Shown here piece after piece: positions 25,485 to 32,000 of a stretch of 32,000 nt of DNA. The DNA is taken from NCBI GenBank assembly GCA_963662715.1, contig OY759724.1, positions 3,270,001 through 3,302,000 on the forward strand, in the 5' to 3' direction. This stretch comes from Candidatus Omnitrophota bacterium. Its GTDB lineage: Bacteria; Omnitrophota; Gorgyraeia; Zapsychrales; JANLHA01. The notes beneath the pieces are model-generated. The model did not search any database. It saw only the letters and a program-made list of their open reading frames with translations, and had not been told where the DNA came from. The stretch's first letter is position 1. The number at the start of each line of letters is the position of its first letter. The translations under genes and the position numbers were made by a program.

Positions 25485-28400
25485 CTATTTTGGACAAATT
25501 TTATTTAATTCTTCCTTCGCCCTATTGTACTCCTCATTTCCAATTTCACCGAGATCATCCCAAGGCAGATTTGGATTAATTTCTTTTAACTCCTCAAGCA
25601 ATAAATCACCCTCTTCTTTTGACTTATCTAACATCTCATTTAATTCTTTTAAATCTTGAGAAGTCAATTCACCTTTGTCGTAAATTTCTTTTGTTCTTTC
25701 TTCTCGCTTTTGAATATTTTTAATATCTTTTAATGTAAGTTTATCAGCGATAGCTTCAGCCATTGCGTTTCTAGTTTTTTCACTTATTTTAGGTAATTTA
25801 GATTTAATTTGGTCAGAAATTTTATTCCTTGCAATTCTCCATACTGGATTGGACTTCATCGGACCTCTAGGTACTAATCCAAAAGAATCAATCAAGTTAA
25901 CTGGATCATCCAAAGCGTAAACATATAGATCCGCATCCCCATCGGCAAAGCCAATCGGGTCTTTGGCAGTCCAACGGCCGGTCTCGGGCGAATAATCTCT
26001 CATCCCAAAGCGAACGAGGCCAGTATCCCGGTCATGCAAACCCCCTGCGAACCCGAAAGGCACCTCAAAGGACGGGTCAGAATCAGCAATGATGTTGCCG
26101 AATGAATCATAGTCGATCTGCTTGATGATGGTTCCGGTTGAATCCGCAACAGCCCGCAAAGAGCCGACCTGGTCATACGTCAGGTAATACGTGGTCCCTG
26201 ACTTGTTCATGCTAAGCGGCATGCGGCTGTCAGCATATTCAAACCGCATCAGGAGATTATCCGAGCCATCATAAATAGCGAGTAATCGCGTTAACCCAAG
26301 CCATAAATACTTCTCGGTAATACTTCCATTGACTACCTTGGCGATCCGCCGGCCTAAAGGATCATGTTGATAGGTGATGATATCGCCTGAAGGCAAGTCG
26401 ACCTGCAGCAGTTCCCCTCTCGAAGAATAATCATAAGATGTTGTATCCGCGCCATCAACCTTATTCCACAGGAAACCATCCTGATCATACTGATAGGTCG
26501 CTGTTCCTACGCTTAAGAGCTGATCCTCAGTATTATATGATAAAGAACGTCCCGCAATCCCCCTTAAACTGTTCATCTCATACGTCCGCACTCCCAGGGG
26601 ATCAGTATCATTATAGCGGTATTCCTCTACCAGCACACCATCTTTTTCCACATGCGTCAACCGCCCCACCTCATCGTAAGTGTAAACATAATTTACGTTT
26701 ACCCCAGCTACCGATTCCGACTTGGTCGCGATCTGTCCGTTATTATCATGCGTCAGCGTCCAGGACGAAACGGCTGTCCCGCTCACCGACGACGCCTGAC
26801 TGGCCACTTCCCCGTAACCGTTAAAGGTGCGCACCGTATCAAATGTCCCGTTGCCCACCCCCTCCGGCAGACCGTTCGACGCATTATTCGTAATAATAAA
26901 GCCCGAAGCCTGCGTGAGGAGCCCGTCATCATCGTAGATGTAATTGCTCGTCCCCCCGGCATAGGTGAAAGCGGTGAGGTTGAAATCATCGTTGTAAGTG
27001 TAAGACAAGGTTTGACTGACCGTTCCCAATAAAGTCTGGGAGGTGAGCAGGTCCCCGTCATAACCATAGAAGATCTGCTCCCCGCCTTTAGAGGTGGACT
27101 GCACCTGGCCCGATGCCAGGTAGCTCAGACTCACATGGCCTTCCGGGGTCTGAATCTCAGTGAGCTGCCCGCCGGTGTAAACATTCACGATCTGCGCGCC
27201 GGAAGGATAGGTGGTCTGCGTGAGCCGCCGGTCCCGGTCATACGTATAGGTCGTGGAACCGGAAAGCGGCGGGTCGTATTCTTCCGCGAGGTTAACGTTA
27301 TTATATTGAAAACCATGGTCAATGCCTGACGGGTTGGTCAGCACCGTCATATTGCCGTTGTTGTCATAATCATAATACAGGTCGGTACCGTCCGGCCGGT
27401 GCACCGCTGTGGTGCGGCCCAAGGCGTCGTACTCAAAGGTGGTCAGATGGTTTTCCGGGTCAAGGATCGAATAGACGTTGCCGTCAGCGTCATACTCAAA
27501 TCTTGTCTGGCGCGTCCCGGTCTGCACGGTTTCAACCCGGCCCCGGGTATCATAGGTGTAACTTGTATCTAACAGCCCCGGCACGCTCACGCTACTGGTC
27601 AGCAAAGTTGCCGGATCATACGTGGTTGTCACCACCCGGCCTTCCGGGGACGTGGCCGTGCTCTGAGACGTTAACAGATCCTGCACCACGGCTGTCGTCT
27701 TTCCGTTGAGGGAAGCCGTGCGGGTAATACGGTCGGTATCCCCATCGGAATTCGTATCTTCATAGAGCCGGTTATAAACCATCTGGGCGGTTAGCCCGGC
27801 CGGGGTGACGGTCGTTGCCTGCCGCGTATATTTAAAGCGGTATTTGGGATCATAATCTATAATATATTCCCGCTCGGTTTCATTCGGCTGGGTGACCTGG
27901 GTCGTGAAGCCGTCGGATGACCGGAAATACACCGTGGAATTCGTACTGGATGACGTGGTCACGGTGGTCTGCGCCCCGCCGGCAACCTCCTGGTCAAGAT
28001 AGGTTGTGGCATAGCCTTCAACCGTGGTCACTCCTGATTCCACATCACCGCTGACCAAAACCTGCCGGGTAAAAGGATTCTGCTTTCCGGCCTGGTCTTC
28101 AGTGGTGTTTATCCGGCCGTCAGCATTAAACGTGTGAATAAAGAAATTGCCGTTAGGTTCGGTTTCCTGAGTCATCAAGCCGTTGTTGTACAAGAAATGA
28201 TACGCTGTCGCATCCGGGTAGCTGATCTGGCTGAGCAGATAGCTGCTCGGGTTAACAGCCAGTTCTGTCCGTATGCCGTCCGGAGAAATAATGGCCGTCG
28301 GCACCCCTCCGGCGGTGCGTTCGACCGTGACCTGATTGCCGAACCTATCGGTCACTGAAACCAGCCGGTCGCTGGCATCATAATTAAAAGTTTCCAAGAC

Positions 28401-31400: not shown

Positions 31401-32000
31401 AATAGCGGGCCGTCCATCATCCACCAAAACTGTTACGGTATCTCTGGCCGTGCCTTCGGGCCCGGTCGCGGTAATGGTATAAGTCGTATCCGTGACCGGA
31501 TAAACAGCCACAGCCCCGTTAGGATCTACTGCTCCGATTTCAGGTTCGATCGTACAAGTATCCGCATCCGTGGAAATCCAGTACAGGGTTGTAAACTCCC
31601 CGGCCTGAATCGCCGTAGGCTCCGCCTCAATGCTCACGGTCGGCGGAAGCGTGGTATATTCGGTGACGACATCAAAATTCGTGTCATGGTTCAGCCAGCC
31701 GTTGGCATCGCCATACTGAATATAATAATAGGCGATATCATTATCAGCGATATCTCCGTAATCCGGGATACTAGTCCAGGCAAATGTCACTGTTATTGTA
31801 TCCGTGCCGATCACGACTTCGCTGTCCCCAGCCTGCAAATTTATGAATTCAGAGCCGTACCCGCCTTCCTTAATAAACCCCGTATCCTTATACCAGCTTA
31901 AGTATCCCCGGTTGGGATTGCCCGAATCATCCTGGTAATTGATCAGAATCGACACCCTCTCCATGGAATCCGGTTCCGGCACGTTAAACACCAAGGTCGC
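25485..32000 (-). CDS. Giant RHS/YD-repeat protein with teneurin-like architecture (N-terminus beyond the window)
   Basis: The frame is open to nt 32000. Reading from the N-terminus there are two tandem Ig-like repeats (31188-31646) and a carboxypeptidase-regulatory/TTR-like domain (about 30879-31082). An Asp-rich Ca-binding-like stretch follows (about 30300-30415), then six NHL blades (about 28530-29550). Many YD repeats follow (..YxYDxxGRL/V..). The RHS core ends ...RDYSPETGRWTAKDPIGFADGDADLYVYALDDPVNLIDSFGL (ends at nt 25875). A 129-aa tip follows. Confidence 0.9.
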   Translation of the reverse strand, partial: ATLVFNVPEPDSMERVSILINYQDDSGNPNRGYLSWYKDTGFIKEGGYGSEFINLQAGDSEVVIGTDTITVTFAWTSIPDYGDIADNDIAYYYIQYGDANGWLNHDTNFDVVTEYTTLPPTVSIEAEPTAIQAGEFTTLYWISTDADTCTIEPEIGAVDPNGAVAVYPVTDTTYTITATGPEGTARDTVTVLVDDGRPAIEISANPAVIQAGESTTLSWTSTDAYDVYMDQDMGAVGVSGTLEVTPQHTTTYTVTATGPNGSASAQVLVSVQSEPASQPDGAYGQQYEQLVPDDATIAEYDPDTFAVIRGQVLDIYDDPVPDVLVTIDGHPEYGTVQTDTSGEYSLPVEGDATLNVIFQKQGLITAYRKVEVPINDVVIVETPVLLAEDQKATTLTLDGNAQTVLLHESSPVTDTFGTRKATVVMTGDNQAFAVDENGDDLFALSTMTIRATEFKTPESMPAILPPTTSYTYCVELSVDGVANVRFENPVITWIDNFLGFDVGEIVPVGYYDPDQAEWIASENGRVVTLLDDNSDGIVDSLDMDGDFLPDDLDSDGDYADEVAGLDDPSEYTPGDTYWRVEVPHFSAWDCNYPSGPPEGSTDPNSGKSSNVEQQTDQCKAHAVRSDVSEDSYVSCRSRVYHEDIPVAGTGLTLHYATSRTGGYHTVITVPASGSTVPASLKEIIVQVEVGGRLFEQTLPALPDQQAVFSWDGLDYLGQRVLAPTASIRVGFVYDAIYYGFGSTPTMPSFGTPGTTVTEVPARNEIISWTEEMQTLYNIAALPSKLAEGWTLSNHHHLFITPKDTRILNKGNGRQLESGSTIITTVAGTGDPGNGNGADPLAVNRDMSHISGLATDSSGNFYIALYYSNRIFRVEPDGYIYHVAGNGSADYTGDGGPATSAGLNNPRRLTVDNTGNIYFADNGNNCIRKIDTGGIITTVAGNGSVGFSGDNGPATSAKLNAPSGIAVDSAGNLYIADSGNLRIRKVDTSGIITTVAGGGLPYYDDGDPAASVILTNAKNVIVDSSDNFYIADYSRVRKVDAASGIITTVAGKIWQGGDIIEPSGDGGPATSAGLPNPNGLAMDTNGNLYIGELYFSVVRKVDTNGIITTITGTGLSGFSGDGGPANEAQISYAQDVAVDDGGSVYIADWYNKRVRKVEASQSTAFALSSDPTDNQFIEEGVGYIFYADGRHKETVDLNTGMVLETFNYDASDRLVSVTDRFGNQVTVERTAGGVPTAIISPDGIRTELAVNPSSYLLSQISYPDATAYHFLYNNGLMTQETEPNGNFFIHTFNADGRINTTEDQAGKQNPFTRQVLVSGDVESGVTTVEGYATTYLDQEVAGGAQTTVTTSSSTNSTVYFRSSDGFTTQVTQPNETEREYIIDYDPKYRFKYTRQATTVTPAGLTAQMVYNRLYEDTNSDGDTDRITRTASLNGKTTAVVQDLLTSQSTATSPEGRVVTTTYDPATLLTSSVSVPGLLDTSYTYDTRGRVETVQTGTRQTRFEYDADGNVYSILDPENHLTTFEYDALGRTTAVHRPDGTDLYYDYDNNGNMTVLTNPSGIDHGFQYNNVNLAEEYDPPLSGSTTYTYDRDRRLTQTTYPSGAQIVNVYTGGQLTEIQTPEGHVSLSYLASGQVQSTSKGGEQIFYGYDGDLLTSQTLLGTVSQTLSYTYNDDFNLTAFTYAGGTSNYIYDDDGLLTQASGFIITNNASNGLPEGVGNGTFDTVRTFNGYGEVASQASSVSGTAVSSWTLTHDNNGQIATKSESVAGVNVNYVYTYDEVGRLTHVEKDGVLVEEYRYNDTDPLGVRTYEMNSLRGIAGRSLSYNTEDQLLSVGTATYQYDQDGFLWNKVDGADTTSYDYSSRGELLQVDLPSGDIITYQHDPLGRRIAKVVNGSITEKYLWLGLTRLLAIYDGSDNLLMRFEYADSRMPLSMNKSGTTYYLTYDQVGSLRAVADSTGTIIKQIDYDSFGNIIADSDPSFEVPFGFAGGLHDRDTGLVRFGMRDYSPETGRWTAKDPIGFADGDADLYVYALDDPVNLIDSFGLVPRGPMKSNPVWRIARNKISDQIKSKLPKISEKTRNAMAEAIADKLTLKDIKNIQKREERTKEIYDKGELTSQDLKELNEMLDKSKEEGDLLLEELKEINPNLPWDDLGEIGNEEYNRAKEELNKICPK
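28530..29550 (-). repeat. Six tandem NHL-repeat coding units (about 165-170 nt each) inside the Rhs gene
   Basis: Recurrent DNA and protein blocks are seen: ...GIITTVAG.G..G.SGDGGPATSA.L..P.G.A.D..GN.YIAD..N..IRKVD... At the DNA level, gccgggccgccgtccccg and gtgat(g/a)at(c/a)ccg blocks recur. These are coding repeats, not a CRISPR array. Confidence 0.8.

Follow-up and report, generated by a model that had tools for sequence, protein, structure and literature searches.

A gene for a probable teneurin-like polymorphic toxin with a swapped tip cassette in an Omnitrophota bacterium

What does the long gene at the end of this stretch of DNA encode: a bacterial teneurin-like toxin, an adhesin, a decaying copy, or an ordinary Rhs protein? 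The stretch, hereafter the window, comprises 32,000 nucleotides from a Candidatus Omnitrophota bacterium (contig OY759724.1, positions 3,270,001 to 3,302,000), and the gene is a minus-strand open reading frame (ORF) that runs off the window end. A sequence-only reading had previously assigned to its product the full teneurin-like domain order and a probable role as a surface or secreted polymorphic toxin. Bacterial teneurin-like proteins have been described before (Jackson 2018; Raoelijaona 2026, Nat Commun, PMC13018210). The more recent study coined the name teneurin-like protein (TLP), gave the domain order as BIG-TTR-TIP-FN-plug-NHL-YD-shell-CTD, in which CTD stands for the C-terminal domain, and reported the cryo-EM structure of the TLP from Bacillus inaquosorum, BiTLP (PDB 9ifo, 9pt5). 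The suggested role as a surface or secreted polymorphic toxin fits this published class. We conclude, with a probability of roughly 0.8, that the gene product is a bacterial TLP, a stand-alone polymorphic toxin of the BiTLP class, with the export, the cleavages and the swapped cassette that are proposed below. The protein is a typical member of the bacterial teneurin-like toxins already described.

The ORF enters the window at 32000 and continues in one uninterrupted frame to its stop codon at 25485-25487. Amino-acid (aa) positions refer to this part of the ORF unless they are labelled P0001, the full-length protein of 2771 uninterrupted residues that was found by homology search and is encoded on a contig of 3.36 Mb. 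The domain order in the ORF is two Ig-like domains, TTR, TIP, FN-plug, a six-bladed NHL propeller, a YD shell, an Rhs core and a 129-aa tip; we have taken the name TIP ('teneurin insertion protein') from Raoelijaona 2026. The features ahead of the tip are given here with the predicted local distance difference test (pLDDT) score of their models.

31647-32000, minus strand: last of five 137-aa N-terminal repeats, modelled as beta-rich (pLDDT about 60-70)
31176-31646, minus strand: pair of bacterial Ig-like domains in tandem (aa 119-196 and 197-275), which AlphaFold models as beta-sandwiches (pLDDT 76-93)
30855-31097, minus strand: TTR domain (aa 302-382), PF25020 TTR_TEN1-4 at 47.1 bits against a cut-off of 27 (pLDDT 88-94)
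30162-30854, minus strand: TIP domain (aa 383-613), aligned continuously with BiTLP residues of about 480-700 (pLDDT 83-93)
29601-30161, minus strand: cleavage loop and FN-plug (aa 614-800), from the alignment to 9ifo and PF24329
28521-29543, minus strand: closed six-bladed NHL beta-propeller (aa 820-1160), Pfam TEN_NHL at 126 bits (pLDDT 90-97)
25875-28460, minus strand: YD-repeat shell with the Rhs-associated core at its end (aa 1181-2042), Pfam TEN_YD-shell and TIGR03696

Four teneurin-specific Pfam models, all above their curated cut-offs, are placed in teneurin order on the ORF. TEN_YD-shell spans aa 1181-2014 (131.5 bits), and the NCBIfam model of the Rhs-associated core, TIGR03696, lies on aa 1964-2042 (68 bits). 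FN-plug_TEN1-4 (PF24329) covers aa 670-735 with 28.4 bits against a cut-off of 27.8, and the same domain also aligns with the FN-plugs of teneurins in the PDB at E ~1e-23. When the full-length protein is searched against solved structures, PDB 9ifo, 'Teneurin-Like Protein', which is BiTLP, ranks first with a match that is far beyond chance (E 2.8e-262). The alignment forms one continuous block from the TTR domain, which aligns with BiTLP from residue 400 on, to the Rhs cleavage site (P0001 905-2642). Animal teneurins rank after 9ifo in this sequence search (E ~1e-84), and Rhs effectors from type VI secretion systems (T6SS) align only along the final ~220 shell residues (E ~1e-30).

The fold agrees with the sequence matches. 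An AlphaFold2 model of window aa 1-1185, built with 39 homologues, has a mean pLDDT of 79.6, with values of about 85-97 in the TTR, TIP, FN-plug and NHL regions. Foldseek searches with this model returned 9ifo at the top (1.9e-38) and teneurins second (E 1e-35 to 1e-30, with more than 900 aligned columns). The modelled propeller consists of six four-stranded blades and can be superposed on the six-bladed Pizza6 designs with a template modelling (TM) score of 0.85-0.90, and the sequence contains exactly six blade cores, at aa 852, 908, 964, 1019, 1079 and 1135, so that the six blades counted in the sequence-only reading are borne out in both sequence and model. The two tandem Ig-like repeats that it had listed were likewise recovered; their match to Pfam Big_12 is weak (17 bits), and their consensus among the homologues is TLxWxS...TTTYTITATG. 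Its plug region of about 400 aa has to be redrawn. The Asp-rich stretch does exist, with DxDxDG-type acidic loops at 30318-30410 inside the TIP domain, but the region is not a single one and splits into TIP, loop and FN-plug on the BiTLP alignment. The loop before the FN-plug (aa 614-662) is disordered in the AlphaFold2 model, and no Pfam family was found for the TIP region, even at E<=10. Pfam, the 9ifo match and the AlphaFold model thus agree on the teneurin-like order of TTR, plug, six-bladed NHL, YD shell, Rhs core and tip. Searches that failed to support a TTR sandwich and a closed six-blade propeller, or that placed the protein among ordinary Rhs/WapA members, had been named as grounds for abandoning this order. 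Because the Pfam, 9ifo, AlphaFold2 and Foldseek results support both folds and group the protein with TLPs and teneurins, the order has withstood these checks.

Domain order is one part of what characterises a TLP. According to Raoelijaona 2026, TIP is inserted between TTR and FN-plug in 96% of TLPs, and the class is further marked by an Rhs-core site PxxxxDPxGL with an Arg and two Asp, a Ser site in the FN-plug loop, a hypervariable toxic C-terminal domain of ~15 kDa, immunity genes directly downstream, and a Sec signal peptide with no dedicated secretion system. Judged at the sequence level, the window protein has TTR and then TIP ahead of the FN-plug, the residues of both autoproteolysis sites, a tip of the expected length and variability, a candidate immunity gene directly downstream, and a Sec-type signal peptide without T6SS or PAAR genes in the window.

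BiTLP undergoes two autoproteolytic cuts (Raoelijaona 2026), and the residues at both sites have counterparts here. In the FN-plug loop, Ser631 (30108-30110) aligns with the BiTLP autoproteolysis residue S724 and Cys618 (30147-30149) with BiTLP C719, with an insertion of 8 residues between the Cys and the Ser relative to BiTLP. In the Rhs core, Arg2001, Asp2014 (DPIG) and Asp2038 (DSFG) have the same spacing as R2103/D2116/D2140 of BiTLP. The motif reads PVNLIDSFGL; the catalytic Asp is kept and the Pro is replaced by Ser. The DSFGL ending of the core, as pointed out from the sequence alone, is therefore present, and it reads as a minor variant of the DPxGL motif: DSxGL occurs in 6 of 108 homologues, and further residues are also tolerated after the Asp. 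Cleavage is predicted after Leu2042 (25875-25877).

The cysteine at the FN-plug loop has a partner in the tip. The BiTLP structure contains a C719-C2216 disulfide that joins the FN-plug loop to the encapsulated tip, a bond which its authors found surprising; the matching disulfide is reported only for BiTLP, and the text is silent on the conservation of the pair (Raoelijaona 2026). Among the homologues of the window protein, the S-x-x..RSR motif anchored on the FN-plug Ser occurs in 100 of 120, and 99 of these 100 have a Cys at most 16 residues upstream of the Ser, usually 6 residues. On the other side, the tip, although its sequence is otherwise unrelated from one homologue to another, carries a Cys in 106 of the 108 homologues with a recognisable Rhs motif, and exactly one in 90 of them; it is preceded by Pro in 71 of the 108 and lies at most 5 residues from the C-terminus in about half. 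For the 93 homologues with both motifs, a tip Cys was found in 91, whereas 34% would be expected from the Cys frequency of the NHL and shell body, and the two Cys-less tips are very short and look truncated. The window protein has both cysteines, Cys618 and Cys2169 (…ICPK), the latter being the single Cys of the tip (25494-25496), three residues from the end. Such a near-universal cysteine pair suggests that the N-terminal fragment and the tip are generally tethered to each other.

The N-terminus, which lies outside the window, bears on the export of the protein. P0001 begins with MSSHCKKILKGVAAVLLIACFSSPVFA, followed by EDP after the cleavage point, and we read this by eye as a Sec-type signal peptide. 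The type of the signal is ambiguous between signal peptidase I (SPase I, cleaving between VFA and ED) and a lipobox (LIAC); in the majority of homologues the signal is a plain one of the SPase I type, and a lipobox-like motif occurs in only 8 of 110. A PAAR domain was not among the Pfam hits of P0001. No T6SS, PAAR, VgrG or Tc genes were found in the 32 kb of the window or next to two homologues, P0002 and P0071, and a conserved export-partner gene, sought beside the same two homologues, was not found either. The sequence-only reading was right that the window lacks T6SS, PAAR and VgrG genes, but the secretion route, which it had called unclear, can now be given for its first step, because the recovered N-terminus has a Sec-type signal and no PAAR domain. 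The signal peptide is followed by five tandem 137-aa repeats, which are mutually more than 90% identical and occupy P0001 aa 33-717 (anchors at P0001 aa 68, 205, 342, 479 and 616), the first four being off-window. No Pfam family was found for the repeat, even at E<=10. The same repeat module heads P0092, and the closest matches of the N-terminal module, P0092 and P0007, are both from Omnitrophota metagenome-assembled genomes (MAGs).

The other end of the protein carries the part on which the assignment as a toxin turns, and three features have to be considered together.

25488-25874, minus strand: polymorphic C-terminal tip (CTD) of 129 aa and ~15 kDa, all-alpha and very hydrophilic
25011-25472, minus strand: candidate cognate immunity ORF of 153 aa, with about five membrane helices in the hydropathy profile
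24989-25931, no strand assigned: low-GC island comprising the last ~18 Rhs-core codons, the tip and the immunity ORF, bounded by maximum-likelihood GC change points

The GC content is 0.29 within the island and 0.51 and 0.42 outside it. Likewise, the gene body has a GC content of 0.53-0.54 and a GC content at third codon positions (GC3) of 0.60, compared with 0.318 and 0.23 for the tip and 0.262 and 0.19 for the 153-aa ORF. One change point, at 25931, lies 18 codons before the cleavage site, and the other, at 24989, lies 22 nt past the downstream ORF. These positions imply that the atypical Rhs-core end, with its DSFGL, was part of the imported segment, which fits tip swapping by recombination in the conserved core. 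With its clear scar at the Rhs core, the tip/immunity pair represents a clean example of such swapping. The 153-aa ORF begins 13 nt past the stop codon of the toxin gene and is preceded by a GGAG ribosome-binding site.

The tip resembles other TLP tips in its length of 129 aa and its hypervariability. Its model, a single-sequence prediction, has five helices (pLDDT 85), and the first half of the tip is basic and the second acidic. Neither the tip nor the 153-aa ORF has a Pfam family, even at E<=10; the tip model has no Foldseek fold match at E<1, and the tip is shared with none of 407 other proteins compared. A chimeric query of tip and immunity ORF against 5.8 billion proteins found a sole match, P0121, with 73-74% identity to the 153-aa ORF. 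This protein is encoded on a 925-bp contig, L017, directly behind a homologue of the last 50 residues of the tip, which ends in …PCPK. Compared with L017, the membrane ORF has a ratio of nonsynonymous to synonymous substitution rates (dN/dS) of 0.18 and the tip end (last 50 aa) one of 0.14, at a dS of 0.6-0.8, and on these values we regard the tip and the membrane ORF as a functional, co-inherited unit. Metagenomes were also scanned, once with the tip and once with an alignment of the immunity protein, and neither scan gave a match. The word-indexed search with tip and immunity ORF missed P0001, which holds the exact tip and scores 260 bits in a local phmmer search; negatives from word-indexed searches with short Lys/Glu-rich queries are therefore weak, and the finding of no homologue for the tip is weak evidence because the word index missed the tip itself.

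Farther downstream, an IS256/Mutator-family insertion sequence (IS) element occupies 23562-24874, about 137 bp past the immunity ORF. It encodes a 396-aa transposase (361 bits to Transposase_mut), and its two ends are imperfect inverted repeats (23562-23602 and 24830-24874). A gene for a TPR-like protein also lies in the window downstream of the cassette.

On the basis of the homology to BiTLP, we propose the following sequence of events. The Sec pathway would export the protein, which would then be displayed on the cell or released from it. Two self-cuts would follow, one before Ser631 in the FN-plug loop and one after Leu2042 in the Rhs core, and the ~15-kDa tip would stay in the shell, probably held there by a Cys2169-Cys618 disulfide, until it is freed at a neighbouring cell, where it would be toxic. 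The 153-aa multi-pass membrane protein would serve as the cognate immunity protein, and the tip and the immunity gene were probably gained recently via recombination in the conserved Rhs-core end. The weakest step of this scheme concerns the site of action: action of the tip on the cytoplasmic membrane, from its periplasmic side, is doubtful, the location of the candidate immunity protein in the membrane pointing only weakly to it.

Several observations weigh against the assignment as a BiTLP-class toxin. The tip has no toxin family, fold match or catalytic-looking motif, so that no activity is assignable; with a grand average of hydropathy (GRAVY) of -1.09 it is unlike the membrane-active BiTLP tip, and its model rests on a single-sequence prediction. 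The signal peptide was only read by eye, and the choice between SPase I and lipobox is ambiguous. Ser replaces Pro in DSFGL and Asp, not Gly, precedes Ser631, so that cleavage is a prediction. Finally, outer-membrane crossing and target-cell entry are unexplained for the whole class.

The protein could instead be mainly an adhesin or a cell-cell recognition or signalling protein, in which contact is made through the scaffold and the repeats, with the tip as a cargo or ligand that is not toxic. A tip that is a charged helical bundle without toxin family or fold would suit such a protein, as would the long, repetitive, adhesin-like N-terminal part, and a role of TLPs in cell-cell communication was left possible by Raoelijaona 2026. 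However, the tip and the downstream ORF are a swapped, co-inherited pair under purifying selection, which is the signature of a toxin/immunity module, and the autoproteolysis residues are conserved. Moreover, four TLP tips are toxic in E. coli, namely the periplasm-exported BiTLP tip and 3 of 9 other TLP tips (Raoelijaona 2026). We consider a primarily adhesive or signalling function improbable.

It is very unlikely that the gene is a decaying or inactive copy, in which the replacement of Pro by Ser in DPxGL would keep the tip from being released and the IS256-type element close by would be a sign of a degrading locus. DSFGL does stand in place of DPxGL, and the element does lie close to the immunity ORF, yet the 2771 codons are uninterrupted, both catalytic Asp and the Arg are retained, the homologues with DSxGL or with other residues at this position show that the Pro is not universal, no cassette gene is interrupted by the IS element, and dN/dS is below 0.2 for both the tip and the immunity ORF.

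An ordinary Rhs/WapA- or Tc-type toxin, delivered by a T6SS (through PAAR or VgrG) or in a TcA-like manner and with NHL and TTR as incidental additions, would have the YD shell and Rhs-associated core in common with the window protein but is extremely unlikely, as a signal peptide stands where a PAAR or VgrG-binding N-terminus would be expected, T6SS and Tc genes are lacking in the window and beside the homologues examined, the similarity to T6SS Rhs proteins is limited to the shell end (~1e-30, as against 1e-262 for the TLP), and the FN-plug closes the shell in the teneurin fashion.

The preferred assignment as a BiTLP-class TLP can be made more precise by comparison with the known systems. 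BiTLP and the window protein share the order of BIG, TTR, TIP, FN-plug, NHL, YD shell, Rhs core and short tip, with 39% identity over the Foldseek-aligned FN-plug/NHL part, and they have in common the FN-plug Ser and Cys, the Arg/Asp/Asp triad, the ~15 kDa tip and the gene directly downstream. They differ in the host, which is Gram-positive for BiTLP and, probably, a diderm of the Omnitrophota here; in the N-terminal module, which in the window protein consists of five 137-aa repeats of no known family; in the tip, which is unrelated, hydrophilic and all-alpha here and hydrophobic and membrane-active in BiTLP; and in DSFGL versus DPxGL.

The metazoan teneurins (Ten1-4, Ten-m; PDB 6fb3, 8r50) likewise have TTR, FN-plug, a six-bladed NHL propeller and a single-chain YD shell in the same order. 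Unlike them, the window protein has no intracellular domain, transmembrane helix, EGF repeats or external ABD/Tox-GHH tip, and a cleavable signal peptide takes the place of the type II membrane topology. Mammalian teneurins lack two features of the window protein, its TIP domain and its autoproteolytic Rhs motif, and among teneurins the TIP domain is kept only in early-branching ones. Compared with other TLPs, the window protein shows no greater closeness to teneurins; the TLPs nearest to animal teneurins are those of Paenibacillaceae (Raoelijaona 2026).

With T6SS Rhs effectors (Pseudomonas protegens RhsA 7q97, Tse5 8cp6, Salmonella bongori Rhs 8qjb) the protein shares a YD cocoon around a polymorphic tip and, as predicted here, aspartyl autoproteolysis at the Rhs core, a second, N-terminal cleavage and a downstream immunity gene. 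In contrast to these effectors, it has a Sec signal peptide in place of a PAAR or VgrG-binding domain, has no T6SS genes nearby, and has a shell with an FN-plug to which an NHL propeller is attached. The TcB-TcC cocoon of the Photorhabdus/Yersinia ABC toxins (Tc) is similar to the architecture proposed here in its hollow YD shell, its Rhs-core aspartyl protease and its enclosed toxic tip, but the window shell is a single chain and not two, and there is neither a TcA injector nor a TcB-type propeller gate. Tc toxins were not among the best sequence or fold matches.

The remainder of the window holds genes of other kinds. A 243-aa secreted protein with a C-terminal PEP-CTERM sorting signal (VPEPATAVLFSLGLFGVFFRQRR) is encoded at 22047-22778, which implies an exosortase system in the genome, and a 696-aa fusion of a cyclic-nucleotide-binding domain with a patatin-like phospholipase at 16368-18458. 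A polysaccharide synthesis/export cluster lies on the minus strand at 315-8714, with genes for a pyruvyl transferase, an epimerase, a ParA-like ATPase of the tyrosine-kinase type, an AAA_22 ATPase, a Wzz/GNVR chain-length protein and a Wza-like Poly_export protein, and is followed by rpoN at 9342-10757. Among named proteins, the best relatives of this RpoN belong to Candidatus Omnitrophota, with 63% identity for the cluster of P0282 and about 50% for many others; together with the matches of the N-terminal module, they point to Omnitrophota as the probable host phylum. Of ten window proteins looked up in the protein collection, nine were found, none of them with a named relative in its 90% cluster, so that the lineage looks poorly sampled.

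How common such proteins are depends on where one looks. Raoelijaona 2026 counted 139 TLP-positive genomes, called TLPs rare, with less than 3% of species in most phyla, and reported them from six phyla, Omnitrophota not among them. The sequence-only reading had also taken the protein to be a comparatively rare representative, which holds per species in that survey but not in metagenomes: with the TIP and FN-plug region alone as the query, 3709 clusters (at 50% identity) were found at E<=1e-3 and 2006 at E<=1e-30. TLPs are not rare in metagenome-derived protein sets. Each of the 119 best homologues listed, which score more than 2000 bits at 45-68% identity, has the teneurin models for TTR, NHL and YD shell; most of them belong to Desulfobacterota (Desulfosarcina, Electrothrix and Electronema among the cable bacteria, and an Olavius symbiont) or to Omnitrophota. 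This abundance in uncultured anaerobes tempers the published view of rarity, and the window gene extends teneurin-like toxins to Omnitrophota.

This locus is set apart by its host phylum, by the repeats at the N-terminus, and by a tip/immunity pair that is unclassified and bears a clear recombination scar. Since the class already has a solved structure and tested toxicity, the gene on its own is of modest importance. The cysteine census is a small extension of the published work and turns the question of delivery, left open there, into a testable hypothesis. Many Omnitrophota are thought to depend on host cells. We put forward, as a tentative idea, that all TLPs mature into a disulfide-linked two-chain toxin and that the tip and the membrane ORF constitute, in Omnitrophota, a new toxin/immunity family whose site of action is the cytoplasmic membrane. 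If this is true, the tip would be joined to a fragment comprising adhesin, TTR and TIP in the manner of A-B toxins, and the YD shell would serve as a chaperone that can be discarded.

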